From: Marispirochaeta sp.
GTDB lineage: Bacteria; Spirochaetota; Spirochaetia; JC444; Marispirochaetaceae
DNA: 64,000 nt
Assembly: GCA_963676835.2 (NCBI GenBank)
Contig: CAXXFF010000002.1
Location: 928,001-992,000, forward strand
Direction of reading: 5' to 3'
The notes beneath the pieces were generated by a model that was given only the letters and a program-made list of their open reading frames with translations, was not told where the DNA came from and ran no database searches. Below are positions 16,972-62,049 of this stretch, piece after piece. A program made the translations under genes and the position numbers. The stretch's first letter is position 1. Each line of letters starts with the position of its first letter.

Positions 16972-17000
16972 TTGACTTATTTAGATCCCGGCTGTACTCT
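16972..17000 (+). promoter_or_regulatory. Sigma70-type promoter for larA-like gene, probably leaderless
   Basis: TTGACT (16972-16977)-N17-TACTCT (16995-17000). In-frame GTG 6 nt downstream at 17007 with no SD. Confidence 0.5.
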
Positions 17001-17006
17001 CTCTCT

Positions 17007-35246: not shown

Positions 35247-37595
35247 ATGATCCAGACAAGCGGGCGTATAAACCTTCTCAAAAAGCAGATAATCGAAAGC
35301 ATTCCCACCGTAAGCATTGAGCGGGCGCGGATTATTACCCGGGCCTATAAAGAATATGCGGACAAACCTGTTGTGGTTAAGCGTGCCCTGGGGCTGAAGA
35401 AAGTCCTTGAGGAGATGACCATCTATATTAACCCCGGGGATCTTCTTGCTGGAAACCAGTCGGAGAGCCTCCGCTGTCCGCCGGTCTATCCGGAAAACTT
35501 CTGCGCCTGGATGGCCGACCGGGAAGAGATGGACATGATGGAAAAGCGGACCCTCAATCCGCTGAAAATACCCGAATCACTCCGGGGAGAGCTGGAGGAA
35601 ATGGCGGAGTATTGGCAGGGGCAGACCCTGGTGGACCGCTGCTACGCGGTCTTTCCGGAAGACATAAAAGATGCACGAAAATCGCTGCTGTTTTCGGTCT
35701 CCCTGGAAAAGAACGCCATGGGACACTGCGTGCTGGATTATCCCAAACTGCTGACCCTGGGTTATGCGGGGCTGAAAAAAGAGATAGAAGAGAGGCTTAA
35801 GGATGCTGATCCGGATCAGCATGATTTTCTCAGTGCCGCGGCAATTGTCTGTGACGGCATTATCGCCTTTTCCAACCGCTACGCGGACCTCGCGATGGCC
35901 GAAGCCGCAGCGGAACAAAATCCGGTCAGGAAGAATGAGCTTATAAAGATTGCCGATGTTTGTCGTAAGGTTCCTGCCGCGCCTGCGGAAACATTCCATG
36001 AGGCCCTGCAGTCGGTCTATCTGGCTCATACGGTCAACATGATTGAGACCAATGCCTACTCCATGAGCTACGGCCGCTTTGACCAGTACATGTATCCTTT
36101 CTTTCGCTCTGATATTGATTCAGGCAGGGAAACGGAAACCACCGTTCAGGAGCTGATCGACTGCTTCTGGTGCAAGACCAACGAGGTTATGCATGTGGAC
36201 GATTCGGAGATGGTCTATTTTCACGGCGGCCATCCCTTCGGACAGCATCTGACTGTAGGGGGAGTGAGCCGCGCCGGTGAGGATGCGGTAAATGAACTCT
36301 CCTACATGTGCCTCGATGCCCATGAAAATGTAGGGCTCTATCAGCCCGACTTCAGTGTCAGGTTTCACCGCGGTACCGCAGACGCTTTTCGCAGGCGGAC
36401 GGCGGAGGTTATTAAACTCGGCTACGGTCTGCCCCAGATTTTCAACGATGAAGTAATTATCGAATCCCTGGAAAACGACGGACTGCCGAAAGACGAAGCC
36501 CGGGATTATACCCCTACAGGCTGCGTGGAATATGCCACGCCGAAATGCTGGATCCGTGCGCCCGGCGGCTGGTTCAATGTACCCAAGGTTCTGGAGCTTG
36601 CGCTTCACCAGGGGCGCTGCGGTGTTACGGGAAAGCAGATAACCAGGGAGACGAAACCGGTTGAAGAGATTCTCAGTTACGATGAACTCTATGAAATATT
36701 TACCGAACACTTTCGTAAGGCGGTGGCCCTGCATGTGGAGTGGAGTAACCTCATCGACGGTGTTCATGAAACCACCATGCCCCAGCCCTCGGTCTCGGTG
36801 CTTACCGATGACTGCATTGCTTCCGGCAGAGACGTGGTAAACGGCGGGGCCCGCTATAACTTCACCAGCCCCCTCCTGGTAGGAATAGCCAATATTGCCG
36901 ACTCCCTGGCAATTATCAAGCGCATGGTTTTCCAGCAGCGGAAGCTTGGTCTGCCGGAGTTAGTTGCAGCCCTGGACAGTAACTTCGAGGGCCATGAGAT
37001 TCTGCACGCCCGGCTCTTGAACTTTCCCGAGCGCTACGGCAATGACATTGAGTTTGTGGATGCCATAGCCCGGGATATTTCGGTTCTCTTCTGCGATGAG
37101 TTTGAAAAATACATCAATACCCGGGGAGGAAAGTTCCGGGCAGGATTCTGGTCGGTAACTGCCAACTTCAACCTGGGTTCCAATACAGCGGCGACTCCCG
37201 ATGGAAGAAAGGCCTTCGAGCCCCTCTCTGATTCAATCTCTCCCAATGCAGGCAAGGATCTTACCGGCCTGACGGCGTCATTCAACTCCGCGGCGAAGCT
37301 CGATCAGCGCCGGGCATCAAGCGGTACGGTGCTGAACCGGCATATTTCTCCTGCGGATATGGAGGGGCCGGGAAAGCTGGATAAGTTTATTAACCTGGTG
37401 GAAGGATATTTCGAACTGGGCGGCACCAACCTGGGATTCAATATCATCTCCCGGGATACCCTGGTTGATGCCCAGGAGCACCCCGATAACTATGCGGACC
37501 TTATGGTTAAGGTTGCAGGTTATGCCGCCTTTTTCACAGAGCTCGGCAAAGGCTGTCAGGATGCTCTGATAGAACGGACTGAACACCACGTATGA
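35247..37595 (+). CDS. Glycyl radical enzyme (PFL2/eliminase-like), substrate unknown
   Basis: 782 aa. SIERA, LLAGNQ, GRFDQY, TGCVEY (thiyl Cys plus Glu), YGND, ATPDGR, LMVKVAGY glycyl loop. Confidence 0.92.
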   Translation: MIQTSGRINLLKKQIIESIPTVSIERARIITRAYKEYADKPVVVKRALGLKKVLEEMTIYINPGDLLAGNQSESLRCPPVYPENFCAWMADREEMDMMEKRTLNPLKIPESLRGELEEMAEYWQGQTLVDRCYAVFPEDIKDARKSLLFSVSLEKNAMGHCVLDYPKLLTLGYAGLKKEIEERLKDADPDQHDFLSAAAIVCDGIIAFSNRYADLAMAEAAAEQNPVRKNELIKIADVCRKVPAAPAETFHEALQSVYLAHTVNMIETNAYSMSYGRFDQYMYPFFRSDIDSGRETETTVQELIDCFWCKTNEVMHVDDSEMVYFHGGHPFGQHLTVGGVSRAGEDAVNELSYMCLDAHENVGLYQPDFSVRFHRGTADAFRRRTAEVIKLGYGLPQIFNDEVIIESLENDGLPKDEARDYTPTGCVEYATPKCWIRAPGGWFNVPKVLELALHQGRCGVTGKQITRETKPVEEILSYDELYEIFTEHFRKAVALHVEWSNLIDGVHETTMPQPSVSVLTDDCIASGRDVVNGGARYNFTSPLLVGIANIADSLAIIKRMVFQQRKLGLPELVAALDSNFEGHEILHARLLNFPERYGNDIEFVDAIARDISVLFCDEFEKYINTRGGKFRAGFWSVTANFNLGSNTAATPDGRKAFEPLSDSISPNAGKDLTGLTASFNSAAKLDQRRASSGTVLNRHISPADMEGPGKLDKFINLVEGYFELGGTNLGFNIISRDTLVDAQEHPDNYADLMVKVAGYAAFFTELGKGCQDALIERTEHHV

Positions 37596-38527
37596 GTTCC
37601 GGCTGGATATTCAAGATCCAGCGGCACTGTATTCACGACGGCCCCGGCATCCGTACCACGGTATTTTTCAAGGGCTGCCCTCTATCCTGCCTCTGGTGTT
37701 TTAACCCCGAGTCCCAGAACCCCCGGCCGGAAGTGGTCCACTCGCCGGATAAGTGTATTGTCTGCGGTCTCTGTCTCAAGGAGTGTCCTGTGCCGGGCGC
37801 TCTTCAGCCGGATGTTCATGAACCGGAAGGACCAATAGGCAAAAGTAAAATCACCCACAATAAACAACTCTGTACTGATTGCGGCAGCTGTCTGGAGGTG
37901 TGTCCCACCGGGGCTTTGAGTCTCATCGGCTATCAGATATCTTCAGAGGAAGTAGTGGAGACTGTTCTGCGGGACAGGGTCTTTTACGAAAAATCCGGGG
38001 GCGGCGTAACCCTTTCCGGCGGAGAGGTTGCTCTCCAGCCGGATTTTGCCCGGGAAATACTGAAGGGCTGCCGGGATAAGGGGATTCATACCGCCATAGA
38101 AACCTGCGGCCATGCTCCCTGGCGGGAAATGGAGAAGGTGCTGGAGTATACCGATACGGTACTCTACGATCTGAAGATTGTGAATTCTAAGAAGCATCTG
38201 GAATTTACCGGGGTGTCCAGTGAGCTGATTTTTGCAAATATGCGGAAGATAAGCGATGCTGGAAAAGAGCTTGTGCTGCGGCTGCCGCTGATACCGGGCC
38301 TGAACGACGGGGAGGATGATCTGTCCGCCGCGGCTGAGCTTATCCTCAGTCTGCCCGCCTGTGCCGGGGTACACCTGCTCCCCTATGAGCTTTTAGGGGT
38401 GGACAAGTATAAAAAGCTCGGCCGGGGTTATGAGCTGGATAAGATACGTCCCCCGGGGGAAGATTTTCTGGAGAAAGTGCAGAGCTTTTTTGCTGCCAGG
38501 GGGATTGATGTGCAGATCGGGGGATAG
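37592..38527 (+). CDS. Glycyl-radical enzyme activating enzyme (radical SAM with ferredoxin insert)
   Basis: HDGPGIRTTVFFKGCPLSCLWCFNPESQ, two CxxCxxCxxxCP motifs, GGGVTLSGGE. ATGA overlap. Confidence 0.93.
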   Translation: MSSGWIFKIQRHCIHDGPGIRTTVFFKGCPLSCLWCFNPESQNPRPEVVHSPDKCIVCGLCLKECPVPGALQPDVHEPEGPIGKSKITHNKQLCTDCGSCLEVCPTGALSLIGYQISSEEVVETVLRDRVFYEKSGGGVTLSGGEVALQPDFAREILKGCRDKGIHTAIETCGHAPWREMEKVLEYTDTVLYDLKIVNSKKHLEFTGVSSELIFANMRKISDAGKELVLRLPLIPGLNDGEDDLSAAAELILSLPACAGVHLLPYELLGVDKYKKLGRGYELDKIRPPGEDFLEKVQSFFAARGIDVQIGG

Positions 38528-38547: not shown

Positions 38548-39939
38548 TTACATCCCCGAAAAAAACGTCAGATACGGTCTGCCTTCAGCGAGTCTCTTCA
38601 CATACACCGCCAGTTCCAGCAGATGATAGTCCCCCCACATCGCTGATTCCCCGTGAGGTACAGCGCTGCCTTCGGGGATGTAGTCCCAGCCGTTGGGGCG
38701 GTGATAGACTGTATGAATCAGTATCCCTTCGTGGTCCGGACCCTCAGCAAGGTAGGGTCCTGTAAACAGAGTCTCACAGACCCGCAGTGCCGCTGCGGAG
38801 TACCGTTCTCCTACCGGTGAAGCTGATCCCATATAACGGCCCAGACGAAAAAGGCCCTGGGCAGAGATTGCTGCGGCGGAGGAATCCACAGGTTCAAACC
38901 GATTGAAGGGGTCCGCCGGTTTATCGAGATAATCCGGCAGACTAACCAGTCCCGGGGCACCGGTGTCCCAGTAGCAGATGCCGTCGGTGGGTGTCTGCTC
39001 AATATAGAAATCAGCAGCTGCTTTGGCAGTCTCCAGGCAACGGTTCAGGGCCTCTTCTTTGGTGCTCATCCCCGGAACCGCAGCCTCGACAAACTCATCT
39101 TCCCCCCGTGTATCAAGCCATTCCAAAAGTTCTGCATAGCCCAGGAGTACCCAGGCATGTCCCCGTGTCCAGGTGGTGTAGGGGGAGTAGCCCTGCTGGG
39201 TCGAGGGGCAGCGGTAGCTGCCGTTGGATGTATTGAAAAGCGATTCGTGGGCCACCCGGCCGCGGATATCATAGCTGTCCCGGCGGGTTCCGAAATAGAC
39301 GGTAAAGCGGGAGGTTGTTTCCATGTGCTGAAGAAGCCGTCTGAAAAGGGATATCTTCTCATCCTGCTCGCCCATCAGAACATGGCCGAATTGATGAGCC
39401 AGTGCCAGTACCCGCAGGGTGCGGATGGTATCGGCAAATAGAGAATGTCCGCCGTTGAAGGAGTAGATATAGCCGAGGCCGTCGGCCGCCTGAGTCCAGC
39501 GGGAGGCCTGTACAGCACCGGAAATCATAATCGCCGAGCGGTACATCTTTTTTTCCGTTTCCGGAATAGAGATCAGCCCTTCCCCGGCAAGGCGCAGCAG
39601 GTTCCCGTAGGTGCTGACAGTGTTAAACCCGTGATCATGGACGCCGGTGTGGGTAAGGTGGGGTGTCATACGGCTAAGGATCTCTGCTTTGCCCCATTGA
39701 AGCATATCCTTCTCTCCGCTTGCTTCGTACAGATAGAGGGCATTCCCAAACTGAAATCCCTGAGTCCATTCGGTCCATCCCCGGGATGTATATTCTCCCT
39801 GTACAGTAAATACCGGTGTTCCTTCAGAGGGATTCTGCCTGTTTATCAGCCTTCTGGTCGATTTAAGGCCTGTTTTGATTACTTTTTCTGTTCCCGCTGC
39901 GAGGTCGTCCAGGGCCGGGGGATTGATGGTATGTATCAT
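38548..39939 (-). CDS. Glycoside hydrolase family 88-like (unsaturated uronyl hydrolase fold)
   Basis: WTQGF, HDHGF, FADTI, QGY..TTWTRGHAW, YWD, DSSAAAI, WGDYHLLE. No signal peptide. Confidence 0.8.
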   Translation of the reverse strand: MIHTINPPALDDLAAGTEKVIKTGLKSTRRLINRQNPSEGTPVFTVQGEYTSRGWTEWTQGFQFGNALYLYEASGEKDMLQWGKAEILSRMTPHLTHTGVHDHGFNTVSTYGNLLRLAGEGLISIPETEKKMYRSAIMISGAVQASRWTQAADGLGYIYSFNGGHSLFADTIRTLRVLALAHQFGHVLMGEQDEKISLFRRLLQHMETTSRFTVYFGTRRDSYDIRGRVAHESLFNTSNGSYRCPSTQQGYSPYTTWTRGHAWVLLGYAELLEWLDTRGEDEFVEAAVPGMSTKEEALNRCLETAKAAADFYIEQTPTDGICYWDTGAPGLVSLPDYLDKPADPFNRFEPVDSSAAAISAQGLFRLGRYMGSASPVGERYSAAALRVCETLFTGPYLAEGPDHEGILIHTVYHRPNGWDYIPEGSAVPHGESAMWGDYHLLELAVYVKRLAEGRPYLTFFSGM

Positions 39940-39966
39940 TCCGAAACCTCCTGAAAGATGAACTGC

Positions 39967-40962
39967 TTATATAGTTTCACCTTCTACATATTGGACAGGA
40001 AGAATTTCCTGCATCGGGCTGTTATCCTTGTCTATAATTGCTGTATTCAGCCATTCTCCGGCTTTTACTCCGAGTTCGGGAATGGAAAGATTCATGGTAC
40101 TTATTTTTCTTTCAATCATTTTCAACAGGGGAGAGTTGTCGAAGCCCGTCAGGGATATCTCTTCCGGAACCCGTATATTTCGTGCAGTAAATGACTGCAG
40201 AAGGGAAAGGGCGAAAAAATCGTTAAAGGCAAAGACTGTGTTGAATCTGTTCTGCTCTATCCAGGGAATGGCTGTGGTGCTGATGGCCTGAAGATCATCA
40301 ACAAAATAGAGATTCTCTTTTCCGAAGGGAACAGCATGGGAGGCAAAGGCCTTCTCAACTCCTGCAAACCGCTCCAGAGAAAGTTTCTTCAGACTGCTGA
40401 AGGCAATGTAGCAGGGGCGGATATCTTTTCCTTTTTTCTCGTAAACAAGATTCGCAAGGGACCGCATTGCGTCACCGGTGTCATAGCAGACAAAGGAGTG
40501 GTCCGGGCTTTGTCTGTTCAAAAGCACTACAGGAATCTCCCGCTCGTTAAGGGCATTTGAGAGCTCTTCTCCGGGGGTTGTGAACGCGAAGATACAACCG
40601 TCGATATGGCCTGTTTTCTTGAAAGAGAGAAACTCCATATTTCCGTCATTTATACGGGTGGTAATATTAAGCCTGACACTGCCGAATCCTTCCTGAATGG
40701 AATCGATCAGTTCGGAAAGGTTGTAGAAAAAATGAATAAGGGTGTTTCCCGCCCGGGGAAGAAACAGATGAATATTCAGGATTGCCCGGCTTACCTGCTT
40801 TTTTATTGCCCTTCTGCGGTAGCCCATCTCTTCCGCAGCCTGACGGATCTGGCGGGTGCGTTCATCGCTTATAAGGCTTGAGTTGTTAAGAACCCTGGAG
40901 ACAGTGCTGGGTGAAATATCAAGTTTGCGGGCAATATCATATACAGTAACGCGTTTCGCCAT
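39967..40962 (-). CDS. LacI-family transcriptional regulator
   Basis: TVYDIARKLDISPSTVSRVLN HTH; FAFND and VPEEISLTGFDN. Atypical hinge region. Confidence 0.9.
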   Translation of the reverse strand: MAKRVTVYDIARKLDISPSTVSRVLNNSSLISDERTRQIRQAAEEMGYRRRAIKKQVSRAILNIHLFLPRAGNTLIHFFYNLSELIDSIQEGFGSVRLNITTRINDGNMEFLSFKKTGHIDGCIFAFTTPGEELSNALNEREIPVVLLNRQSPDHSFVCYDTGDAMRSLANLVYEKKGKDIRPCYIAFSSLKKLSLERFAGVEKAFASHAVPFGKENLYFVDDLQAISTTAIPWIEQNRFNTVFAFNDFFALSLLQSFTARNIRVPEEISLTGFDNSPLLKMIERKISTMNLSIPELGVKAGEWLNTAIIDKDNSPMQEILPVQYVEGETI

Positions 40963-41021
40963 TCTGCCGGGTACCTCATATTCTTGCTTATCAGCCTTTT
41001 TATATCATATTTCAGCAATTG

Positions 41022-41097
41022 TTGCATGCAAATTATTCAACTATTTTCTTGACAGAAAAAAGAAAGCACCTCTATACTTGTTTTGTTGCATGCAACA
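41022..41097. promoter_or_regulatory. Divergent promoter with two TTGCATGCAA operators
   Basis: Operators at 41022-41031 and 41086-41095 (TGTTGCATGCAACA is a perfect 14-mer) flank TTGACA (41049-41054)-N18-TATACT (41073-41078). Confidence 0.8.
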
Positions 41098-41117
41098 TTA
41101 ACCTATAGGATGTATCG

Positions 41118-42513
41118 GTGGCAGATTTTAAACGTTTTAATTTGAACAGTCCGGAAGATTTAAAAAGAGAACTCTCAGCATTATCACTTGAACTGCCAAT
41201 GAGTGAAAATATTGGCCTTCTTGGCGACACGGTGCCCCTGGGACGGGCAGAAAAAAAAGAAGAAAGGCAAATGGCAGCTTCCCAACCGCTTTGTAACCCA
41301 GCCAATGGAAGGATTTGATGCACTTGAGGAGGACTCATCCCCTTCGGAGCTTACCTTTCGACGGTACAAACGCTTCGCCGCTGGTGGAGCGGGACTTATC
41401 TGGTTTGAGGCCGCTGTAATATGCTCCGACGGCCGAAGTAATCCCCGTCAGCTTATGCTGACGGAAAAGAATCTTGATACCTGGAAGCGCCTGGTGGACG
41501 AAACAAGGCAGGCTGCCATGGACCGGTGGGGACACGAAATTGTAACCGTACTGCAGCTTGCTCACTCCGGACGCTGGAGTAAGCCTGAAGGCCGGCCGAA
41601 ACCGGTTCTGATCCACCACAACCCGGTGCTTGATGCTGCGGTGGGCAGCAGCGCCGAGGATGCCCTGATTAATGATGATGAGCTGAAGCGTCTCAGTGAT
41701 CTGTTCATCGAAAACAGCATACTTGCTACCCGGGCTGGTTTTGACGGGGTGGAAATGAAGGCCGTCCACGGATATCTTTCCGCGGAACTGCTCTGCGCTC
41801 ATACCCGGCCGGGGCGCTACGGCGGCAGCTATGAAAACCGGACCCGGTTTGTAAGGGACTGTACCGAAGGCATGCGTCAGGCAATGAGTTCCGACCATTT
41901 TGTAACCGCCAGGCTTACCCTGTACGAACCATCGGCTTACCCCTACGGATGGGGAACAAAGACAGAGACCGGTTCGCTTGAAACAGATTTTTCCGAGCCC
42001 ATCAGATTTGCTAGGGAACTGGCAGCCCTTGGGGAGATGCCGGTGTTTAACTATTCCCTGGGGTATCCCCGTTTCCAGCCCTATATTACCCGTCCATATA
42101 ACAATCCTATTGCCGGTGATTCCGTCTCTCCCGAGCACCCCCTGGAGGGAATTGTACGATTCCAGAACGCCGGCAGGGATCTTCAGGCCGAACTTGGTGA
42201 GGTACCGCTGGTGACCGCCGCCCTGGGCTGGCTCCAGCATCTGATGCCCGTTGTTGCTGCAGGGCTTGTGAAGCAGGACTGGGTTCGTCTGATAGGCCAG
42301 GGACGGCAGAGTTTCGCCTATCCGGAATCGGTGGCAGATATTCTTACCAAAGGGAAAATGGAGCCCCGCAGATGCTGCATTACCTGTTCGCTCTGCTCCC
42401 AGATAATGAAAGACGGTCTCGGCCGAACAGGGTGTCCCGTTAAGGATGGGGAAATTTACCGGAAGGAGCTGCAGAAAGGGCGGGCGGCAGCAAGGGCGCG
42501 GGGTCTTAAATGA
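41118..42513 (+). pseudogene. NADH:flavin oxidoreductase (OYE-like) with C-terminal Fe-S motif, split by a +1 frameshift at an A8 tract
   Basis: GTG 41118 with AGGA RBS opens a 66-aa ORF. The body (PNRF..QPMEG.D, GGAGLIWFEA, QLAHSGR, GFDGVEMKAVHGYL, YGGSYENR, CITCSLC..C) is in ORF 41203-42513. Removing one A from 41251-41258 fuses them. May be intact in vivo. Confidence 0.75.
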
Positions 42514-44552
42514 AGAGTCAAAATTACCGGCGGCAGCTTGACCCGGTCTCAGTTGGAAAGAGCAGTATTGCCTGTTTCTACTATCATACTCTGATAATAG
42601 GCAGCGGCGGAGCAACCCTGAGTGCGGCGGTGAGGCTGAAGAGAGCAGGAGTGAGTGATATCTGTGTTCTCACCGACGATCTTCAGGGGGGAACATCCCG
42701 CAATACCGGTTCGGACAAACAGACCTACTATAAACTGTCCGATTCGGGAAGAACTCCCGATTCTCCCTACAGCATGGCGGAATCTCTTTATGCAGGCGGT
42801 GCCATGCATGGAGATATTGCCCTTATCGAAGCCATTGGATCGGAGAACAGTTTTTATAATCTTGTCTCTCTGGGAGTTCCCTTTCCCCATAACCGGTGGG
42901 GGGGCTATACGGGATACAAGACTGATCATGATCCTCAGACCCGGGGGATGTCTCTGGGACCGTATACATCAAAAAAAATGGTGGAAGCCCTGGAGTCAGA
43001 ATGCCGCATACTGGATATAGAAATCAGGGACAGGCATGAGTGTGTACGGCTTATCCGCTCAGGCGACAGGATTGCCGGAGCAGTTATTCTGACAGCAGCA
43101 GCCCAGTCCGGTGCCGACAGGGATAACCCGCAAGGAAGACTGAAGATCTTTCTCTGCGACAACATGGTTTTCGGCCCCGGGGGACCTGCGGGGCTCTATG
43201 AGGCATCGGTGTATCCTCCGCGGCATACCGGTGCCATAGGCCTGGCTCTGGAAATAGGGGCGGAGGCGGTAAACCTCACCGAATCCCAGTACGGTATTAC
43301 CAGTACGGAATTCCGCTGGAATCTATCCGGAAGTTTTCAGCAGGTTATACCCCATTACTACAGCCGGGATCCGCTGACGGGCAACACATACTGCTTTTTA
43401 AATGACTATTTTCCTTCCATGAAAAAGCTTTCCCTGGCCATTTTTCAGAAGGGGTATCAGTGGCCCTTCGATGCACGCAAGGTATTTGACTACGGTTCTT
43501 CGCTTATTGATATTCTGGTGTATCAGGAGTCGGTCATCCGGGGGCGGGAAGTCTTTATGGACTTCAGATGTAATCTGCAGGGGGATAAAAAGATCGGCCT
43601 GTTCAATCCAGCTGGTCTGGCTGAAGAAGCCGCACACTACTGGCGCCGTTCCGGGCTGACCGGGGAAACCCCGGTGGAGCGTCTTAAGCAGATGAATCCC
43701 AAGGCGCTGCAGCTGTATAGATCCCATAACATCGATCTGTATTCTCAGCCCTTAAAGATTGCAGTATCGGCCCAGCATAATAACGGCGGGCTTGCGGGGG
43801 ACATCTGGTGGGAGTCTACAAATATCAGACACCTCTTTCCTGTAGGTGAGGTAAACGGCGCCCACGGGGTTGCCCGCCCCGGCGGCAGCGCTCTTAATTC
43901 CGGACAGGTTGGTGCCCTGCGGGCGGCGCAGAAAATTGCCAATGTCTATGGGGAAAACAGTCTTGACCTGGACGAGGCCCGCTCCGCTGCAGGCCGGGAT
44001 GCGGGCTTGCTGTTGGAGACTATCGGGGAAATCCTGGGAACCGCCGCAGACCGGGAGTCTCTCAAGGCCTTCCGCCGTGAGTTCCGGATGCGGATGAGCA
44101 GTTCTGCCGGGCTCATTCGAAGCCCAGGCAAAATTGATAAGGTCTGCAGGGATGCAGCGGTTCAGCAGAATAATTTTAAGCGACTGCAGGTGGATGGTGT
44201 CCGCCTTACGACAGCCCTCCGGCTGCGGCATCAGGTAATATCCCATCGGATTTATCTGGAAGCAGTTCGTCATTATCTCTCTTCAGGCGGAGGAAGCAGG
44301 GGCTCCTTTCTTGTTGCCCTTGAATCGGATGCAGCGGAGGAAGAAGGTATTCCCCTGGTTCCGGAGATCGGTTTTATCCCCGGTATCCGTCCTGAGAACC
44401 CCGGTCTGCGGGATAGTCTGCAGATTATCAGATTTAACAGTGACAGCGGTGAGCTTGAGTTCTCCTGGACAGACCGCCGGTCTGTTCCGGAAGAAGATGA
44501 CTGGTTTGAGAATGTCTGGGCCCGTTATAACAGCGGCGAAATCTTTACATAA
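42510..44552 (+). CDS. FAD-binding oxidoreductase of SdhA/FrdA/NadB fold, function unknown
   Basis: IIGSGGA dinucleotide fold, GYKTDHD, AQHNNGG, LFPVGEVNGAHGVARPGGSALNSGQVG, GGGSRG. Confidence 0.8.
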   Translation: MKSQNYRRQLDPVSVGKSSIACFYYHTLIIGSGGATLSAAVRLKRAGVSDICVLTDDLQGGTSRNTGSDKQTYYKLSDSGRTPDSPYSMAESLYAGGAMHGDIALIEAIGSENSFYNLVSLGVPFPHNRWGGYTGYKTDHDPQTRGMSLGPYTSKKMVEALESECRILDIEIRDRHECVRLIRSGDRIAGAVILTAAAQSGADRDNPQGRLKIFLCDNMVFGPGGPAGLYEASVYPPRHTGAIGLALEIGAEAVNLTESQYGITSTEFRWNLSGSFQQVIPHYYSRDPLTGNTYCFLNDYFPSMKKLSLAIFQKGYQWPFDARKVFDYGSSLIDILVYQESVIRGREVFMDFRCNLQGDKKIGLFNPAGLAEEAAHYWRRSGLTGETPVERLKQMNPKALQLYRSHNIDLYSQPLKIAVSAQHNNGGLAGDIWWESTNIRHLFPVGEVNGAHGVARPGGSALNSGQVGALRAAQKIANVYGENSLDLDEARSAAGRDAGLLLETIGEILGTAADRESLKAFRREFRMRMSSSAGLIRSPGKIDKVCRDAAVQQNNFKRLQVDGVRLTTALRLRHQVISHRIYLEAVRHYLSSGGGSRGSFLVALESDAAEEEGIPLVPEIGFIPGIRPENPGLRDSLQIIRFNSDSGELEFSWTDRRSVPEEDDWFENVWARYNSGEIFT

Positions 44553-44567
44553 AAAGGCGGAATCCTG

Positions 44568-45350
44568 ATGAAGAAGGCAGGTAATGCGGTACTGGTTACC
44601 GGAGGAAGTCGGGGTATCGGCAGGGGCATAGCGGTACAACTTGCATCTGCGGGTTTTTCGGTGGCGGTAAATTTTGCCGGAAACAGGGCTGCTGCGGAAG
44701 AGACGGTAAAAATCTGCCGAAACAATGCGCAAAATACGGAACAGCAGTTTGACCTGTTTCAGGCGGATATCTCCCTGGCAGAAGACCGGGAACGTCTTAT
44801 AGATGAGGTAGCAGCCCGCTTTGGGAAGTTGCGCGGTTTGGTAAATAACGCCGGGGTTGCGCCTCTTGAAAGGGGAGACTTGCTTGATCTCAAGGAGGAG
44901 TCCCTGGACAGGCTGATAGGTATAAACCTCAAGGGGGCATTCTTTCTTACCCAGTCTGTAGCCCGCAGGTGGACAGGGGAAGAAGAGCCCGGAGGGCGGA
45001 ATATTGTGTTTATTACCTCCGTCTCTTCTGAGATGGTCTCTGTAAACAGAGGCGATTACTGCATGACAAAATCCGCTCTCTCCATGGCGGTTCAGCTCTA
45101 TGCCCGGCGTCTGGCAGCAGAGGGTATCGGAGTCTTTGAAATCCGTCCGGGAATAATCCGCACCGACATGACCGCGGGAGTACAGGAAAAGTATGACCGG
45201 CTTATAGCTGAAGGACTGGTACCGCAGAAACGCTGGGGAACCCCGGAAGACATCGGCACTGCTGTTGCCTCCCTGATGCGCGGTGATTTCGGCTATGCAA
45301 CTGGTTCTGTGATTCATCTTGATGGCGGCCTGCATATTCCTGAGCTGTAG
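44568..45350 (+). CDS. Short-chain dehydrogenase/reductase
   Basis: TGGSRGIG, NNAG, TSVSS, YCMTK, RPGIIRTDMT. Confidence 0.9.
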   Translation: MKKAGNAVLVTGGSRGIGRGIAVQLASAGFSVAVNFAGNRAAAEETVKICRNNAQNTEQQFDLFQADISLAEDRERLIDEVAARFGKLRGLVNNAGVAPLERGDLLDLKEESLDRLIGINLKGAFFLTQSVARRWTGEEEPGGRNIVFITSVSSEMVSVNRGDYCMTKSALSMAVQLYARRLAAEGIGVFEIRPGIIRTDMTAGVQEKYDRLIAEGLVPQKRWGTPEDIGTAVASLMRGDFGYATGSVIHLDGGLHIPEL

Positions 45351-45418
45351 ACGGATCCATTTTGACGGTGATGTTACCTGTTTTGTGCGGAAATTTTCTA
45401 AAGCGGGGGGGCTGAAGT

Positions 45419-46297
45419 ATGATTCTTACCGGGTTCACTGATGAAGTATCGCCGGATTTTAGCAGGCAGGTTGACGCCTGCCGTGTTCTGTCATGGGACT
45501 GGATTGATCTGAGAACAGTTGGCGACAAGAATATATGCCACCTTGAAACAGGTGAAATGGAAAATCTGCTGGAGGTTTTACGCGATTCAGGCATTCGCAT
45601 CGCATCCTTCGGCAGTCCAGTGGCCAACTGGTCCCGTTCTCTGGATTACCCCTTAAAAGATGAGATCCGGGAGCTTGAGCATGCTGCCGGGCTTATGCGC
45701 ATGGCTGATGTGAAGGGAATCAGGATAATGAGCTACCAAACAGATGCCCCAATACCCCTCCATGATCCTGTTAGAGATAAGGTTTTAAACAGACTGAAGG
45801 AATTGTCCCGGGTTGCCGGGAACGAGGGGATTGTCCTGCTTCATGAAAACTGTGAAACCTGGGGAGGTCAGAGCCTTGAGCACACTCTCTTTCTTCTGGA
45901 TAACATCCATTTACCGGCTTTTCGACTCATTTTTGACACTGGTAATCCTCCTGGCTCACCGGACATCCGGGGAACGGTTCCATTTAAACGACAGAACAGT
46001 CTGGAGTTTCTGAAAGCTGTTTATGAGGCTGTAGATATGGTTCATATAAAGGATGCGCGGTTCAGCAAAGAGGACGGTACTGTCTACACCTGGCCTGGAG
46101 AGGGTGACGCCGGACTGTCCGGGATTTTTTCATGGCTCAAAAAACAGGAATACTCCGGTCCGTTCTCAATAGAGCCCCATCTTGCTGTGGTCTACCATGA
46201 CGAGTCCGTAAAATCGGATGAAAAGAAGCGGTGGGACATGTTTATTGAATATGCCCGTAGAAGCAGCAGGCTGCTTAAGGCTGCCGGCTTTACGTGA
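45419..46297 (+). CDS. Sugar phosphate isomerase/epimerase (AP endonuclease 2 TIM barrel)
   Basis: GFTDE, LHEN, FDTGN, HIKD, PGEGD and SIEPH metal-binding motifs. Confidence 0.85.
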   Translation: MILTGFTDEVSPDFSRQVDACRVLSWDWIDLRTVGDKNICHLETGEMENLLEVLRDSGIRIASFGSPVANWSRSLDYPLKDEIRELEHAAGLMRMADVKGIRIMSYQTDAPIPLHDPVRDKVLNRLKELSRVAGNEGIVLLHENCETWGGQSLEHTLFLLDNIHLPAFRLIFDTGNPPGSPDIRGTVPFKRQNSLEFLKAVYEAVDMVHIKDARFSKEDGTVYTWPGEGDAGLSGIFSWLKKQEYSGPFSIEPHLAVVYHDESVKSDEKKRWDMFIEYARRSSRLLKAAGFT

Positions 46298-46324
46298 CAA
46301 AAGGATGCTCTGTAAAGATTTATC

Positions 46325-46387
46325 TTGACAGATTCGAAATTTGCTCCCTATAATGTTGCATGCAACAAAAAACTTTTGCATGCAACT
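46325..46387 (+). promoter_or_regulatory. Consensus promoter followed by two tandem TTGCATGCAA operators
   Basis: TTGACA (46325-46330)-N18-TATAAT (46349-46354); operators at 46356-46365 and 46376-46385. Confidence 0.85.
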
Positions 46388-46434
46388 ATTCTGTTTGTAA
46401 AAGTGAAAACGCGGGAAAAAAAAGGAGAGGAGAA

Positions 46435-47457
46435 ATGAAAAAAACTGTTGTTGTTCTGCTGGTATTTTTTATTGCTTTAGGTCTTTCTGCGGAAGGAAAA
46501 AAGGAATCCGCCGGAGGCTATGAATGGCAGCCCGGCAAACCGGTCAACCTGGTTGTGCCCTGGGGCGCTGGAGGCTCAACCGACCGTTCTGCACGTACCA
46601 CAGCTGGTATTGTTGAGGGACCTCTGGGCCAGAAGATTGTTATTGTAAACCAGGCTGGTGCTTCCGGGTCGGTAGGAACCAAGAATGTACTTGATGCTCC
46701 CAAGGACGGACTGAAATGGGTGGCCGGAGCAGTTAAGGATCTTGGTGTGTATAAGGTTCAGGGAATGATTGATACAACCCTGGATGACTGGCACCTCTAC
46801 CTTAATGTAGCTATGCCCAATGTGGTTGCCGTAAGTGCTGACTCGCCTTACAACGATTTCGGTGAGCTTATTGCTGCAATGAAAGCCAATCCCGGAAAGA
46901 TGAAAGTGGCAACCGCCGGTGTAAACTCCGCCGGTCATACCGCCATTGAGCTCATTAAAAAATATGCCGGAATTGAGTACACCCATGTAACCTATGATGG
47001 TGGAAACCCTGCGGTAATAGCCACGGTCGGCGGTGAAGCGGATGTTGTAACCCAGCTTTCTGTTGAAGAAGTTGACATGCTTAAAGCAGGAAAACTGAAG
47101 GCCCTCTGTGTTATGACAGACAAACCCCTTGTTGTAGATGGAATGTCCGGAGAAATTCCTCCCATTACCAACTGGATAAAGGATTTTGCATCTGCCCCCA
47201 TCTATTTCGGTATTTTTGTACCCAAGGGAGTACCTGCAGAAGTTACCAATACCCTGGATCAGATCTGGGAAGATACGGTAATGGACTCTGCGGAGCTGAA
47301 AGACTGGGCCGCCAAAAATGCGGTTGTCTTTGACCCCTGCTATGGTGAAGAGGCTCTGAAGAAATCCTTCCCCATGGTTCAGATCAGTGCATGGCTGAAA
47401 GTTGAATCCGGTGATGCGGTGGTAGATCCTGCCAGCATTGGAATCCCCAAACCCTGA
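46435..47457 (+). CDS. tctC: Tripartite tricarboxylate transporter substrate-binding protein
   Basis: VVPWGAGGSTD, NQAGASG, YDGG. Signal peptide from ATG 46435 after AGGAGAGGAG; ORF track starts at 46360. Confidence 0.88.
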   Translation: MKKTVVVLLVFFIALGLSAEGKKESAGGYEWQPGKPVNLVVPWGAGGSTDRSARTTAGIVEGPLGQKIVIVNQAGASGSVGTKNVLDAPKDGLKWVAGAVKDLGVYKVQGMIDTTLDDWHLYLNVAMPNVVAVSADSPYNDFGELIAAMKANPGKMKVATAGVNSAGHTAIELIKKYAGIEYTHVTYDGGNPAVIATVGGEADVVTQLSVEEVDMLKAGKLKALCVMTDKPLVVDGMSGEIPPITNWIKDFASAPIYFGIFVPKGVPAEVTNTLDQIWEDTVMDSAELKDWAAKNAVVFDPCYGEEALKKSFPMVQISAWLKVESGDAVVDPASIGIPKP

Positions 47458-47471
47458 TTATTGTGCATCCG

Positions 47472-47522
47472 GTCCCTCTCTTCCTCTCTTTTCCCCCTTT
47501 TTAGAGGGGCGAAGAGAGGGAC
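47472..47522 (+). other. Intercistronic stem-loop after tctC
   Basis: GTCCCTCTCTTC (47472-47483) and GAAGAGAGGGAC (47511-47522) form a perfect 12-bp inverted repeat; only a short U-run follows. Confidence 0.6.
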
Positions 47523-47548
47523 ATTTCTACTAAAACAGGAAAAATCAT

Positions 47549-48064
47549 ATGAACGATCAACAAATGAAAAAGGCGGATTTCTTAACCTCAGTTGTTCTGC
47601 TTGTTTTCGGAACCGGCGTAACCTGGATATCCTTTACCATGCCCCGTCTGGAAGAGAAGGGCATTAACCCTTACACAGCCCCTGGAGTAGTCCCTGCAAT
47701 ACTGGGCATTATTATCCTCTTTCTGGCTCTTGTTATGTTTATCAGAACAATAAAGCAAGGAGATTTTCTCCCCGTCTTTTCCGGCGGCGATCTGAAATCC
47801 TTTATCCTCAATGGAGGAACCCTTCGCCTGACTGTCGCTCTTGTTCTCAGTCTTATCTATGCCCTGGGAATGGTTGGGAGGGTCCCGTACCCCCTGGCAA
47901 CCTTCCTCTTTATCTTTGCCTTTATCCTCTGTTTCGACCTGAAATTTGATGCAATTCCGGGCAGTAAAAAAAGAATAATACTGGTGGCCTTTATTGAAGC
48001 TCTCATTACAGCTGCAGTTGTAAGTACCGCTTTTCAATATCTCTTTCTCGTCGATCTGCCTTAA
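47549..48064 (+). CDS. tctB: Tripartite tricarboxylate transporter small membrane subunit
   Basis: 4-5 TM helices, APGVVP, C-terminal FQYLFLVDLP. Confidence 0.85.
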   Translation: MNDQQMKKADFLTSVVLLVFGTGVTWISFTMPRLEEKGINPYTAPGVVPAILGIIILFLALVMFIRTIKQGDFLPVFSGGDLKSFILNGGTLRLTVALVLSLIYALGMVGRVPYPLATFLFIFAFILCFDLKFDAIPGSKKRIILVAFIEALITAAVVSTAFQYLFLVDLP

Positions 48065-48076
48065 GGAGTTTCCTCT

Positions 48077-49603
48077 ATGTTTGAAGGACTTAGAATGTTT
48101 CTGGAGAGCCTTGGTGGATTCTTATCTCTCAAGATTCTTTTTGATGTATTATGGAGTACCCAGTTAGGCATTATCGTAGGAATGCTTCCCGGCCTGACAG
48201 CCACCATGGGTGTTGCCCTTATGACCACCCTCACCTACAAGATGTCCGCCGATAATGCGGTGCTTATTCTTATGTGTATGTACATCGGCGCCATATACGG
48301 CGGAAGCCGGTCGGCAATTCTGCTTAACATTCCCGGTACCCCCGCCAATGCGGCTACTTCTGTCGATGGTCATCCCCTGGCGCGGCAGGGCAGGGCTGGA
48401 GAAGCAATCGGGATAGGCACAACCGGAAGTTTTCTCGGCTCTGTTGTGGGCATGCTGATGCTGGCTCTGTTTACCCCTATTCTGGGAAACTTTGCCCTCG
48501 ATTTTCAGTCCTATGAGTTCTTCTGGCTGGCTATTTTCGGCATTATTATTTCCGGCAACCTGACTGCTCCCAAGGATCCTCTTAAGGGATGGATTTCGGG
48601 CTTCCTCGGACTCTTTGTTGCCATGATAGGCATGGAGGGTATCCACGCCCACATCCGTTTCGCCTTCGGCAATGTTAATCTTTCCGGAGGAATTGATCTG
48701 TTACCCGCCATGGTCGGCGCCTTCGGTATGGCTGAGATTCTTTCTCTTATGAAGAGTCCACGGTCTGAAGTAATCAACACGGAGATAAAAAATGTCCTGC
48801 CCCGGCCGAAGCAGATTCTCAAATACAAGAAGACCATCCTCCGCTCAGGGATTATCGGTACCTTTGTCGGTGCCATCCCCGGGGTGGGTGAAGATATTGC
48901 CGCCTGGGTAAGCTATGATTTTGCCAAGCGGGGAAGCAAGGAGAAGGAGCTCTTCGGCAAGGGAAGTACCGAAGGCCTTATCGCCTCGGAAACCGGGAAC
49001 AATGCAGCTGCTGCCGGGGCGGTTATTCCGGTACTTTCCCTGGCTATTCCCGGTTCTGCCCCGGCTGCGGTACTGCTTGCAGCCATGTTTATTCATGGTA
49101 TCCGTCCGGGGCCGCTGATTATGATCGAGTCTCCGGAGTTTGTGTATAAAGTTGTGGCCATGGTTTTTCTGGCAACCTTTGCCATGTTTATTCTTGGGCT
49201 CTCCATGGTCCGTACCCTGGTGAAGGTTCTGCAGGTGCCGAGGACAAAACTGATTCCGGTAATATTTACCCTCTGTGTTATCGGTTCCTATGCCCTTGCC
49301 AGCCGCACCTTCGATGTCCGGGTAATGATATTCTTCGGTGTTCTCGGGTTTCTTATGCGGGAGATGGAGTATCCTGTGGCTCCCATGATTCTGGGAATTA
49401 TTCTGGGGGGGATTCTGGATAAAAACCTGCGCCGAGCCCTGGTAATTTCCGACGGAAATTTCTGGCCTTTCGTAACCCGTCCCATATGTCTGGTGCTGAT
49501 GGTTTTTATTCTCTTTGCCATCGTCGGCCGTATGAACTGGTTTATAAAATTAAAAAATGCCCTGTTTGCAAAGCTGGGGCGGGGAGAACGTTCAAATGCA
49601 TAA
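48077..49603 (+). CDS. tctA: Tripartite tricarboxylate transporter large permease
   Basis: GMLPGL, YGGSRSAILLNIPGTP, DGHPLARQG, ETGNNA, IPGS. Confidence 0.92.
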   Translation: MFEGLRMFLESLGGFLSLKILFDVLWSTQLGIIVGMLPGLTATMGVALMTTLTYKMSADNAVLILMCMYIGAIYGGSRSAILLNIPGTPANAATSVDGHPLARQGRAGEAIGIGTTGSFLGSVVGMLMLALFTPILGNFALDFQSYEFFWLAIFGIIISGNLTAPKDPLKGWISGFLGLFVAMIGMEGIHAHIRFAFGNVNLSGGIDLLPAMVGAFGMAEILSLMKSPRSEVINTEIKNVLPRPKQILKYKKTILRSGIIGTFVGAIPGVGEDIAAWVSYDFAKRGSKEKELFGKGSTEGLIASETGNNAAAAGAVIPVLSLAIPGSAPAAVLLAAMFIHGIRPGPLIMIESPEFVYKVVAMVFLATFAMFILGLSMVRTLVKVLQVPRTKLIPVIFTLCVIGSYALASRTFDVRVMIFFGVLGFLMREMEYPVAPMILGIILGGILDKNLRRALVISDGNFWPFVTRPICLVLMVFILFAIVGRMNWFIKLKNALFAKLGRGERSNA

Positions 49604-50774
49604 AAAATCCATTAAGGCAGGAATTCTGGGAAGCGGCTTTTCTGCAAAGTTTCATTACGAAGCATTGTTGCGGGTATACGGTGCAGATATCGAGGTTGCC
49701 GGTGTTTACTCACCTAACCCGAAGAACTGCGGCGGTTTTGCAGAAGAGCGGGGATTGAAGGCGTTCAGTTCGGCGGAGGCGCTGATGGAAGCCTGCGATG
49801 TGGTACATATCTGTACGCCTCCTTCAACCCACGAGGATTTAGCCGTAAAAGCTCTAAGACTGGGAAAATATGCCATTGTAGAAAAGCCTTTTACCGGATT
49901 TTTTGGTAAGGGCGTGGAGAACTTCAACGGTGATACCTTCGACCGTGAGTATGGACTCAACCAGGCCATGGAAAGTCTTCAGCGTGTTCTTGAGGCGGAA
50001 AAGAGCAGTTCCGCCAGGATTCTTTACGCTGAGAACTGGGTGTATGCTCCTGCTGTTCAGAAGGAGCGGGAAGTGCTGGAAAAAACCGGCGGGCAGATTC
50101 TCTGGCTCCATGGACAGGAGAGCCACAGCGGTTCACACTCCGATTTCTACGGTGACTGGTCATTTTCCGGCGGCGGATCCATTATGGGGAAATCAGTCCA
50201 TCCCCTGACGGCATCACTCTATCTGAAGAGCGTTGAAGGCCGTGTCCGGGGGGAGGCGATTCGACCTGTAACGGTGAGTGCAAGAACCCATGCCCTTACC
50301 AGGCTGGATAATTTTCAGAACGACGGATTCCTGCGCACAGGCTACAAGGACATAGAAGATTTCGGTGCCCTGCATATTACTTTTTCCGACGGAACTGTGG
50401 CCGATATTTTTTCCTGTGAACTTATCATGGGGGGTGTCTATAACCATCTGGAGGTAAGCGCAAGCAATCACCGAACCATCATCAACATCAATCCCAATAC
50501 TGCAATGCAGACCTACAATCCCAAAGCATCCCAATTTAACGACATCTATGTGGTGGAGAAAATCGGGACAAAAGAAGGCTGGGCATGTACATCTCCCGAT
50601 GAGGACTGGTTTACCGGCTATCAAAACGAGATGGAGAGCTTTTACCACAACGCCCTTGAGAACACGGTACCGGAATCGGACAGCAGGCTGGCTTCAGATA
50701 CCATTGCGGTGGTCTATGCAGCCTACCTTTCCGCGGAGCGGAAGGGGCAGGAGGTGAAAATTCCCTTGATATAG
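49596..50774 (+). CDS. Gfo/Idh/MocA-family NAD(P)-dependent oxidoreductase
   Basis: GILGSGF, ICTPPSTH, VEKP, GGGSIM...HP. ATG 49596; ORF track starts at 49557. Confidence 0.88.
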   Translation: MHKKSIKAGILGSGFSAKFHYEALLRVYGADIEVAGVYSPNPKNCGGFAEERGLKAFSSAEALMEACDVVHICTPPSTHEDLAVKALRLGKYAIVEKPFTGFFGKGVENFNGDTFDREYGLNQAMESLQRVLEAEKSSSARILYAENWVYAPAVQKEREVLEKTGGQILWLHGQESHSGSHSDFYGDWSFSGGGSIMGKSVHPLTASLYLKSVEGRVRGEAIRPVTVSARTHALTRLDNFQNDGFLRTGYKDIEDFGALHITFSDGTVADIFSCELIMGGVYNHLEVSASNHRTIININPNTAMQTYNPKASQFNDIYVVEKIGTKEGWACTSPDEDWFTGYQNEMESFYHNALENTVPESDSRLASDTIAVVYAAYLSAERKGQEVKIPLI

Positions 50775-60717: not shown

Positions 60718-60730
60718 GGGAGCTATTTAA

Positions 60731-62002: not shown

Positions 62003-62049
62003 TGCAGATGAAACTTGGAATGGCAAATATATTTTATCAGGAGAAAAGA

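Follow-up and report, generated by a model that had tools for sequence, protein, structure and literature searches.

A putative LacI-regulated locus of Marispirochaeta sp. within a widespread family of gene clusters with exchangeable modules, probably for the opening of ring-shaped sugar acids

Gene content and regulatory sites of the locus

The window analysed here is a 64,000-nucleotide stretch of the genome of Marispirochaeta sp. (assembly GCA_963676835.2, contig CAXXFF010000002.1, positions 928,001 to 992,000 of the forward strand), and the locus under study occupies its positions 38,548 to 50,774. This locus belongs to a widespread family of gene clusters built on one short-chain dehydrogenase/reductase (SDR) with exchangeable modules, of which no description was found in the literature searched. 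All open reading frames (ORFs) of the nine genes that a first-pass annotation had listed are present and fall into the families that it gave, the GH88 match being distant and below the Pfam cut-off.

Two genes are read leftward, one for a GH88-like protein (38548-39939, minus strand, 463 aa), whose top fold match is the structure 1vd5, and one for a LacI-family repressor (39967-40962, minus strand, 331 aa, Pfam LacI and Peripla_BP_3). The divergent arm, on the plus strand, encodes an Old Yellow Enzyme (OYE)-family flavoenzyme with a C-terminal four-cysteine (Fe-S) motif (41118-42513, about 465 aa, PF00724), a flavoprotein of SdhA/NadB fold from an unnamed family (42510-44552, 680 aa, PF00890), an SDR of family PRK12745 (44568-45350, 260 aa, above the cut-off of NF009386) and an accessory TIM-barrel protein of the AP_endonuc_2 family (45419-46297, 292 aa, PF01261). 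The transport operon, on the same strand, encodes a tripartite tricarboxylate transporter (TTT), i.e., the solute-binding protein TctC (46435-47457, PF03401, the probable start being the ATG after a ribosome-binding site), TctB (47549-48064, PF07331) and TctA (48077-49603, PF01970), together with an accessory Gfo/Idh/MocA oxidoreductase (49596-50774, plus strand, about 392 aa, PF01408).

As the first-pass annotation had claimed, the operator TTGCATGCAA occurs in exact form at 41022, 41086, 46356 and 46376. It has nine copies in the 4.43-Mb genome, against a Markov expectation of 2.3-4.2, and its clustering here is far above chance, since four copies lie within 5.4 kb where about 0.01 would be expected at the genome-wide rate. 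Operator 1 (41020-41033) overlaps a weak leftward promoter-like site (41032-41004, 9/12), and operator 2 (41084-41097), a perfect 14-bp palindrome, lies immediately 3' of the -10 element of a sigma-70-like promoter (41049-41078, plus strand, 11/12) that would serve the OYE-flavoprotein-SDR-TIM arm. Operators 3 and 4 (46354-46387, spacing 20 bp) lie immediately 3' of the -10 element of another sigma-70-like promoter (46325-46354, plus strand, consensus 12/12), which would serve the transport operon, each operator pair being directly preceded by such a promoter-like site. Promoter-like matches overall number 15, against 11.2 in shuffles, and their total is not enriched. A site just downstream of a promoter is the usual position for a repressor. 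The same operator adjoins LacI homologues in loci L006, L008, L009, L076, L247, L251, L252 and L257, which include both flavoprotein-type and GH88-type loci (see below); since the motif recurs beside LacI homologues in other genomes, TTGCATGCAA is very probably the operator of the LacI protein of this locus.

The window holds a fifth copy, at 4622, which the earlier list lacked. It stands immediately after TATAAT (4611-4633, plus strand), upstream of an energy-coupling factor (ECF)-type transporter cluster composed of an unknown 206-aa protein, CbiQ and two ATPases, with an NrtR-type regulator nearby, and it may belong to the same regulon or to that of another regulator. The other outlying copies lie upstream of a lone DctP gene (C2:536185), upstream of a LarA-like-looking gene (C4:50527) and within two coding regions. 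A wider regulon comprising these five copies was considered, and no link to the pathway could be shown.

The start of the OYE gene is the GTG at 41118, which corrects a previous assignment to 41203. In the window, the first part of this gene lies in another frame, with a break at 41250-41259. Two extra bases behind 41257 are present in contigs from three of four sequencing runs (two studies), the fourth run, X3, having no coverage there, and the orthologue in the closest relative examined, G352, is a single unbroken frame of 462 aa. On these grounds the frame break is an assembly error, and both a programmed frameshift and a pseudogene are ruled out. The four-cysteine motif is found in 47 of 53 OYE homologues. 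The protein shares its OYE barrel (PF00724) and this motif with Fe-S flavoenzymes of the BaiCD and 2,4-dienoyl-CoA reductase type, but BaiCD-type enzymes are about 640 aa long with a C-terminal FAD/NAD(P)H domain, whereas the locus OYE has about 465 aa and PF00724 only, and scores 55 bits against the BaiCD NCBIfam model (cut-off 825).

Conservation of the gene set across genomes

Conservation was assessed in the best 80 of 595 GTDB loci containing the flavoprotein gene, 38 of which are at least 18 kb long, and in the best 80 of 585 metagenome loci containing the GH88-like gene, only 35 of which reach at least 10 kb. Among the 80 flavoprotein loci, the OYE is present in 58, the SDR in 59, TctA in 5 and a Gfo protein of the locus type in 1, while the GH88-like gene, a locus-type TIM barrel and glycyl-radical genes are each found in none; the 38 longer loci give 32 for the OYE, 33 for the SDR and 0 for the GH88-like gene. 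Of the 80 GH88-like loci, 51 have the SDR, 11 the OYE, 18 a TIM barrel of another type and 21 a Gfo protein of another type, and none has the flavoprotein. The conserved core consists of the OYE, the PRK12745-type SDR and the SdhA-fold flavoprotein. The nine genes, which the first-pass annotation had regarded as a set to be found conserved by a gene-neighbourhood search, are not one conserved unit. The SDR is the most constant gene over all locus variants; it scores 328 bits against NF009386 (cut-off 250), PRK12745 being a family name by annotation only, and its closest PDB match is 4da9 (E 1e-66).

No other genome examined has all nine genes together; G352, the closest relative, has eight of them in the same locus, which lacks the TIM gene. 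Besides being missing from this otherwise syntenic locus, the TIM gene has no tblastn match in the 160 flavoprotein and GH88-like loci. Close homologues of the locus Gfo protein are found in 1 of 80 flavoprotein loci, in 3 of 80 GH88-like loci and in L118 and L253, and it has no PDB match at E 1e-12. Glycoside cleavage by oxidation and elimination with a Gfo protein and a TIM barrel is a known system. It draws on the same broad families (Gfo/Idh/MocA and AP_endonuc_2), but no conserved linked pair of this kind is seen here, and the dedicated pair put forward by the first-pass annotation does not fit a G352 locus without the TIM gene. TctC has close homologues in a flavoprotein locus (L008, 64%) and in a GH88-like locus (L166, 55%), and the window locus joins these two related locus types, which have the SDR, OYE, regulator and transporter clade in common. 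In loci of E. coli and Rhizobium, and in three near-complete genomes from the genus studied here, the flavoprotein is found with no such OYE, a distribution that supports neither an obligate two-subunit enzyme nor the earlier notion of two flavoenzymes acting as an obligate pair.

Genes for the kinase of 2-keto-3-deoxygluconate (KDG) or the aldolase of 2-keto-3-deoxy-6-phosphogluconate (KDPG) accompany the flavoprotein in 19 of its 80 loci and the GH88-like gene in 14 of its 80, and a fusion of aldolase and kinase encoded in flavoprotein loci scores 947 bits against NF041633 (cut-off 700). In this genome, kdgK is found at C2:1217 kb and kdgA at C4:439 kb, so that the locus needs no kinase or aldolase of its own. 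The genome also has kduI-kduD at C2:54-56 kb and uxaC with uxaE at C3:794 kb, as well as uxaA; the earlier statement that kduI, kdgK and uxaC are absent is correct for the scanned ORFs of the window and wrong for the genome, where all three lie elsewhere. The KduI/KduD route has its KDG end point in common with the pathway proposed below. With kduI-kduD encoded outside the locus, ordinary unsaturated uronates are already served, which weighs against the uronide-type substrate of the first-pass annotation.

The glycyl-radical enzyme and activase encoded at 35247-38527 (plus strand) score below all equivalog cut-offs (best 592 against 1100, for HypD), and their class is unassigned. They were rejected as part of the pathway, such genes being found in none of the 80 flavoprotein and none of the 80 GH88-like loci and lying, in G352, about 7 kb off with a different cluster between. 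The 86% identical glycyl-radical copy of G352 adjoins a 4-oxalomesaconate tautomerase/LigK cluster.

The SdhA-fold flavoprotein

The predicted model of the flavoprotein (pLDDT 91.4) has a complete SdhA/NadB fold, including the C-terminal helical domain, and matches FrdA (5vpn; TM 0.68, 18% identity) and NadB (1knr; Z 41.7, rmsd 3.5, 504 residues aligned), with overall identities to SdhA, FrdA and NadB of 13-21%. It shares with these enzymes the equivalents of H423 (motif HYxMGG) and R456 (motif HGxNRLG), but differs in having no covalent-FAD histidine (no His in the aligned segment) and an invariant glycine (G262) in place of the histidine of QFHPT. One carboxylate site is kept, and the second-site histidine of SdhA is missing. 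The capping-domain proton-donor arginine of SdhA falls outside the HMMER alignments, and the matching position, judged by eye, appears to be aliphatic. The family has invariant motifs of its own (GSDKQT, YxTDxD and KGYQWPF), its best NCBIfam equivalog score is 77 bits against cut-offs of 285-1100, and the ESM Atlas gives generic FAD-binding names only. No cluster of Fe-S or anchor subunits, such as accompanies complex II, was found among the neighbours in flavoprotein loci. A role as a complex II subunit or as NadB is excluded by the missing histidines, the equivalog scores and the lack of an Fe-S/anchor partner, while the retained H423 and R456, the lost QFHPT histidine and the family's own motifs point to a monocarboxylate substrate and a chemistry other than fumarate reduction.

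By analogy, the flavoprotein is proposed to be a flavin-dependent enol-ether hydratase. 2-Haloacrylate hydratase resembles NadB/SdhA. A passage on one such enzyme, Caa67 of Pseudomonas sp. YL, describes an FAD enzyme that depends on a reductant and hydrates an acrylate with an alpha-heteroatom (PMC6100074).

Of 5426 complete E. coli genomes, 3123 (58%) carry the flavoprotein gene. The flavoprotein loci span spirochaetes, Bacillota, Aminicenantes, KSB1, Bacteroidota, Planctomycetota and others, including anaerobes of many phyla; relatives also occur in aerobes, and the label "anaerobic" that the route had been given is not supported. This genome holds a second copy of the gene at C2:1873134-1873982 (L099 11132-14476), shortened to the C-terminal 287 aa (53%) and adjoined by two ORFs that look like an IS21 transposase pair. 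In L242-L244 (G355, G353 and G351), a lone flavoprotein gene closes a cluster that includes a glycerol-3-phosphate-dehydrogenase-like gene, an ATP-binding cassette (ABC) importer and a patatin-like protein. The spirochaete flavoprotein loci L101-L105 and L107 have a conserved tail of a ThuA-like protein, a Gfo protein, a sugar carrier and a 683-aa protein without Pfam match, and in the Aminicenantes loci L012, L014, L036 and L052 a 677-aa protein without Pfam match adjoins a GH38 gene. A more distant SdhA-fold protein (24%) is encoded on an Agrobacterium pusense plasmid (L004 10061-11773) among a CoA-transferase, an AraD1 dehydratase and an aldehyde dehydrogenase, a set that is possibly a sister pathway.

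The GH88-like protein

GH88 chemistry is the addition of water to an alpha-alkoxy acrylate, and for this reason the GH88-like protein suits the ring-opening step proposed below. Its PF07470 score is 24.6 bits, below the gathering cut-off of 26.6, and it matches the unsaturated glucuronyl hydrolase (UGL) of Bacillus sp. GL1 (PDB 1vd5) at E 7e-11. The same structure is the top Foldseek match of its predicted model (pLDDT 87.6; TM 0.83 on the target, 23% identity), and the ten best matches are all UGL structures. Across 32 GH88-like sequences, W58, F62, D102, D170, H231, Q249, W257 and R259 are invariant; W58, F62 and H231 align directly to 1vd5, and D102 and D170 were mapped by motif via an alignment to 3wiw. 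A passage of PMC4528949 assigns vinyl-ether hydration and stacking in UGL to Asp88, Asp149, His193, Trp42 and Phe46, and the equivalents of these five residues are all invariant in the 32 sequences. The (alpha/alpha)6 fold and the catalytic and stacking residues are thus common to both proteins, but the GH88-like protein is about 85 residues longer than GL1 UGL and lies below the Pfam cut-off, and its gene is accompanied by the SDR, the OYE or Gfo/TIM genes. Polysaccharide lyases are not among the frequent neighbours of the GH88-like gene in its best 80 of 585 metagenome loci. By sequence comparison, the protein represents a large subfamily distant from UGL, and by analogy it is proposed to be an enol-ether hydratase.

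Exchange of the flavoprotein, GH88-like and DUF993 genes

A search of 400 spirochaete genomes anchored on the SDR only, which avoids choosing loci by the genes that are counted, gave 16 loci. The flavoprotein gene is in 11 of these and the GH88-like gene in 3 others; no locus has both, and of the two that have neither, one is a 3.5-kb contig. In a selection-biased set of 144 distinct SDR loci, 76 have the flavoprotein, 54 the GH88-like protein, 7 DUF993 and 6 none of these, and 1, that of G352, has two. The window is a second case, beside G352, of two exchangeable genes in one SDR locus, and holding two of three alternative last-step genes makes this locus unusual. A search of 50 of the 80 flavoprotein genomes found the GH88-like gene in one.

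Judged from gene order and content, DUF993 fills the same slot in proteobacteria, the 1,5-anhydrofructose reductase operon of Sinorhizobium (see below) among them. A locus of Paraburkholderia sp. 22B1P encodes a TetR regulator, the SDR, DUF993, a TIM barrel, a CoA-transferase, an enoyl-CoA hydratase and a major facilitator superfamily (MFS) carrier. An E. coli island between ytfB and rplI encodes a TetR regulator, the SDR, a TIM barrel, an enoyl-CoA hydratase, a CoA-transferase, the flavoprotein and a tripartite ATP-independent periplasmic (TRAP) carrier, so that, transporter aside, the two differ only in DUF993 versus the flavoprotein. The DctP protein of this island has 52 PDB relatives, the top ones of which presumably bind uronates. 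In G003, the order Gfo2-DUF993-TIM is found where others have GH88-like-TIM-Gfo2; the partner of Gfo2 and TIM is DUF993 in G003 but the GH88-like gene in L117-L119. A glycerate kinase gene is present in most, not all, of the DUF993 loci examined. Of 401 spirochaete genomes, one yielded DUF993, and the genome studied here did not.

The OYE (58 loci) and a CoA-transferase (3 loci) never occur together in the 80 flavoprotein loci. In G351, G353 and G355 (97-98% complete), a lone flavoprotein gene is present, with no SDR or OYE found, the OYE query of five genomes having had no positive control; a lone gene argues that the flavoprotein is useful by itself, as a last-step enzyme would be.

Links to anhydro-sugar metabolism and CoA-dependent variants

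In Rhizobium sp. CCGE532 (L002), the flavoprotein gene lies in an operon headed by a match to 1,5-anhydro-D-fructose reductase (E 1e-148), and the SDR genes of L204 and L214 also lie in operons headed by this reductase. The S. meliloti operon comprises afr, a CoA-transferase, an enoyl-CoA hydratase, an aldehyde dehydrogenase, an ABC importer, two glucose-methanol-choline (GMC) oxidoreductases, the SDR and a glycerate kinase, with DUF993 divergent. The SDR of the S. meliloti afr operon (47%) and the flavoprotein of the Rhizobium sp. CCGE532 operon (35%) are members of the families found in the window locus. The afr, CoA-transferase, enoyl-CoA hydratase, aldehyde dehydrogenase and GMC genes are all absent from the window locus, with which the Sinorhizobium operon shares only the SDR and, through relatives, the flavoprotein.

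1,5-Anhydro sugars arise from starch and glycogen breakdown. The binding protein of the afr operon is presumably smc04396. This S. meliloti gene is induced by dextrin, according to a passage of PMC4960864. Afr makes 1,5-anhydromannitol, for which section 5.1 of a review states that the next enzyme is not yet identified (PMC12441222); in the Sinorhizobium/Ensifer route described there (Afr, PDB 2glx and 4koa), C1 is hydroxylated by an unidentified P450-like enzyme. No P450 is listed in the annotated afr operon. Judged from their families, the choline-dehydrogenase-like GMC proteins and the aldehyde dehydrogenase could oxidise C6 to the acid, giving 2,6-anhydro-D-mannonate, which would then be activated with CoA, dehydrated to the enol ether and hydrated to KDG. 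C6-oxidising genes are missing from the loci with acid carriers (TRAP, TTT or MFS), as would be expected of loci that take up the acid itself. A second type of locus, proteobacterial and actinobacterial, adds an acyl-CoA dehydrogenase, often with an electron-transfer flavoprotein (ETF), which could form the same double bond from a 3-deoxy substrate; the OYE and SDR could form it without CoA, or reduce a pyrone in the opposite direction. Glycyl-radical anhydroglycolysis (YbiW, PflD) likewise opens an ether ring, that of 1,5-anhydrohexitols, but by radical chemistry, on 6-phosphates after uptake by a phosphotransferase system (Ma et al. 2024, as cited in PMC12441222).

This genome also carries, at C2:1.90-1.91 Mb (L202 2813-13642), a cluster of LacI, TRAP, CoA-transferase (44% to that of the E. 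coli island), enoyl-CoA hydratase and a second glycyl-radical enzyme (33%) with its activase. It adjoins transketolase-like and sugar-kinase genes, and the pairing of a CoA module with a glycyl-radical enzyme is unusual. A short tandem repeat with a translated 24-residue unit lies beside it (C2:1898201-1898548, L202 201-548).

A proposed pathway and its alternatives

The preferred reading, a plausible though tentative one, is that the locus is a LacI regulon for the uptake and ring opening of an anhydro-type six-carbon ring acid via an enol ether. The regulatory signals, gene families, co-occurrence and exchange pattern are those observed above; the reaction steps are all inferred. The substrate would be a six-carbon ring acid without an anomeric hydroxyl (a 2,6- or 2,5-anhydro-aldonate, or a pyran-4-one-2-carboxylate), presumably imported by the TTT system. 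The OYE and SDR would set the oxidation state of C2-C4 to give a cyclic enol ether of 2-keto-3-deoxy-hexonate, 2,6-anhydro-3-deoxy-hex-2-enonate, whose hydration at C2 would open the ring to a KDG-type acid. This hydration would be carried out by the GH88-like protein, through known GH88 chemistry acting on a monomer, or by the flavoprotein, in the manner of flavin-dependent 2-haloacrylate hydratase, and KdgK and KdgA, encoded elsewhere in the genome, would finish the route. Other bacteria would reach the enol ether via a CoA-transferase and an enoyl-CoA hydratase, with or without an acyl-CoA dehydrogenase, or via a Gfo and TIM pair, and in some DUF993 and glycerate kinase would perform the last steps. 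The reading is favoured because the flavoprotein and GH88-like genes replace one another (0 of 80 both ways) amid a common SDR, OYE and KdgK/KdgA, because the same operator stands beside LacI homologues in both locus types, because the flavoprotein and SDR sit in 1,5-anhydro-D-fructose reductase operons, because the GH88 catalytic residues are invariant and the flavoprotein keeps one carboxylate site, and because the aldolase-kinase fusion of flavoprotein loci passes NF041633. It upholds the first-pass idea of a LacI-controlled catabolic route that handles an acidic sugar derivative by way of an unsaturated intermediate, in that the operator travels with LacI homologues and KDG kinase or KDPG aldolase genes recur in both locus types. 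A wider claim, that there is a widespread non-radical, oxygenase-free way of opening the ether ring of anhydro-sugar acids, in which an alpha,beta-enol ether is formed and then hydrated by three unrelated folds (GH88 barrel, SdhA-fold flavoprotein and DUF993), is for now rather doubtful.

Several observations weigh against the enol-ether pathway. The substrate and the enzyme activities of the set remain predictions from sequence, the locus counts are inflated by kinship, and many of the loci are short contigs. The exclusion of the flavoprotein and GH88-like genes holds at the level of the locus only, since four of the five further genomes of the genus contain both, unlinked in three and linked only in G352, and 2 of 4 GH88-like genomes in the phylum sample also hold the flavoprotein. 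G351 and G355 keep both genes where the SDR and OYE were not found, so that neither protein simply duplicates the other, and the two may differ in the isomer or ring size that they accept. The modules are not strictly exclusive either, L246 having the OYE together with a CoA-transferase and an enoyl-CoA hydratase, and L457-type loci and L003 add an IlvD-family dehydratase that is superfluous to the scheme. The difference between the E. coli and Paraburkholderia loci could instead mean that a DUF993 aldolase is replaced by core kdgK/eda. The substrate of Caa67, as described, is a three-carbon halo-acid with no sugar context, and its likeness to the flavoprotein is drawn from described chemistry. 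Finally, this genome has no afr orthologue by tblastn (best match 26-29%) and no GMC orthologue.

It is conceivable, if somewhat unlikely, that the SdhA-fold protein is a genuine oxidoreductase of the C=C bond in an unsaturated monocarboxylate, comparable to urocanate reductase, TcuA or ketosteroid dehydrogenase, and that the loci are parallel SDR-sharing routes rather than swaps. Its structural neighbours are indeed all redox enzymes, the OYE adjoins it in 58 of 80 loci, and both genes persist together in several genomes; yet an Fe-S or membrane partner is missing from the loci, this OYE does not always accompany the flavoprotein, acyl-CoA dehydrogenase or OYE co-occur with it (L011) instead of replacing it, and its one-for-one exchange with DUF993 better fits a non-redox step. 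A uronide, or a lyase-derived 4,5-unsaturated uronide, is an unlikely substrate: here the Gfo protein would oxidise C3, the TIM barrel would eliminate the aglycone to leave a comenate-type pyrone, the OYE and SDR would reduce it, and the hydratase would yield KDG, bypassing KduI/KduD, with the GH88-like protein perhaps also cleaving unsaturated disaccharides. The redox balance would, by reasoning, equal that of KduI/KduD, and UxaC, UxaA, UxaE, GH28 and heparinase-II/III-like genes lie beside some loci. Of the 80 flavoprotein loci, 27 have some TIM barrel and 21 some Gfo protein, where random 20-kb stretches drawn from this genome give 2.6% and 3.0%, with profiles built in part on the same loci. 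The two are found together, however, in only 7 of these 80 loci, the OYE never accompanies the Gfo2/TIM pair among GH88-like loci (0 of 10 versus 21), and the locus TIM gene is absent in G352; kduI-kduD is already in the genome, and the afr-operon and CoA variants would be left unexplained.

That the three exchangeable proteins act on an open-chain intermediate (a diketo or deoxy-keto acid derived from an aldonate or keto-aldonate), catalysing its tautomerisation, epimerisation or hydration, is improbable. IlvD-family dehydratase, Zn-dependent dehydrogenase, ketose-3-epimerase-like and KduI/IolB-family genes in some loci would suit such a role, as would the annotation of DUF993 as DHDPS-family, but the stacking Trp and the two catalytic Asp residues that act on a ring enol ether are retained in the GH88-like protein, and open-chain 2-keto acids would need neither CoA activation nor an enoyl-CoA hydratase. 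Most improbable of all is that the locus is a patchwork, with unrelated catabolic genes brought under a single regulator: the nine-gene set is indeed confined to this genome among those seen, with the eight genes of G352 coming closest, but the same SDR, OYE, LacI, operator, TTT clade and Gfo protein recur with the flavoprotein or GH88-like gene across distant lineages.

Other features of the window

Elsewhere, the window encodes a 1480-aa protein with TPR and CHAT domains (13-4455, minus strand), a LarA (lactate racemase) family protein (16968-18287, plus strand) and a TRAP transporter with the gene order dctQ-dctM-dctP, in a region whose GC content is lower (60187-63108, plus strand, 0.40-0.44).

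Implications

The first-pass annotation knew of no described pathway with this enzyme set, and literature searches, which left most subscription journals and supplements out of scope, so that a prior description is possible, found no account of one. They likewise returned nothing on presumed CFT073-style locus tags, on DUF993 or on comenic or kojic acid degradation. According to the anhydro-sugar review, no aerobic oxidative 1,5-anhydroglucitol pathway has been described (PMC12441222).

The gene set probably opens ring-shaped sugar acids and feeds central metabolism, and related sets are found in rhizobia, in many anaerobes and in more than half of E. coli genomes. The exchange pattern brings the SdhA-fold flavoprotein, the GH88-like subfamily, DUF993, the PRK12745 SDR and the short Fe-S OYE together in one testable pathway with a named candidate intermediate. 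A non-redox role of an SdhA-fold protein in sugar metabolism would be unusual. If true, the proposal would provide a function for a flavoprotein family present across E. coli, for DUF993 and for PRK12745, as well as an alternative answer for the step after 1,5-anhydromannitol in Sinorhizobium.

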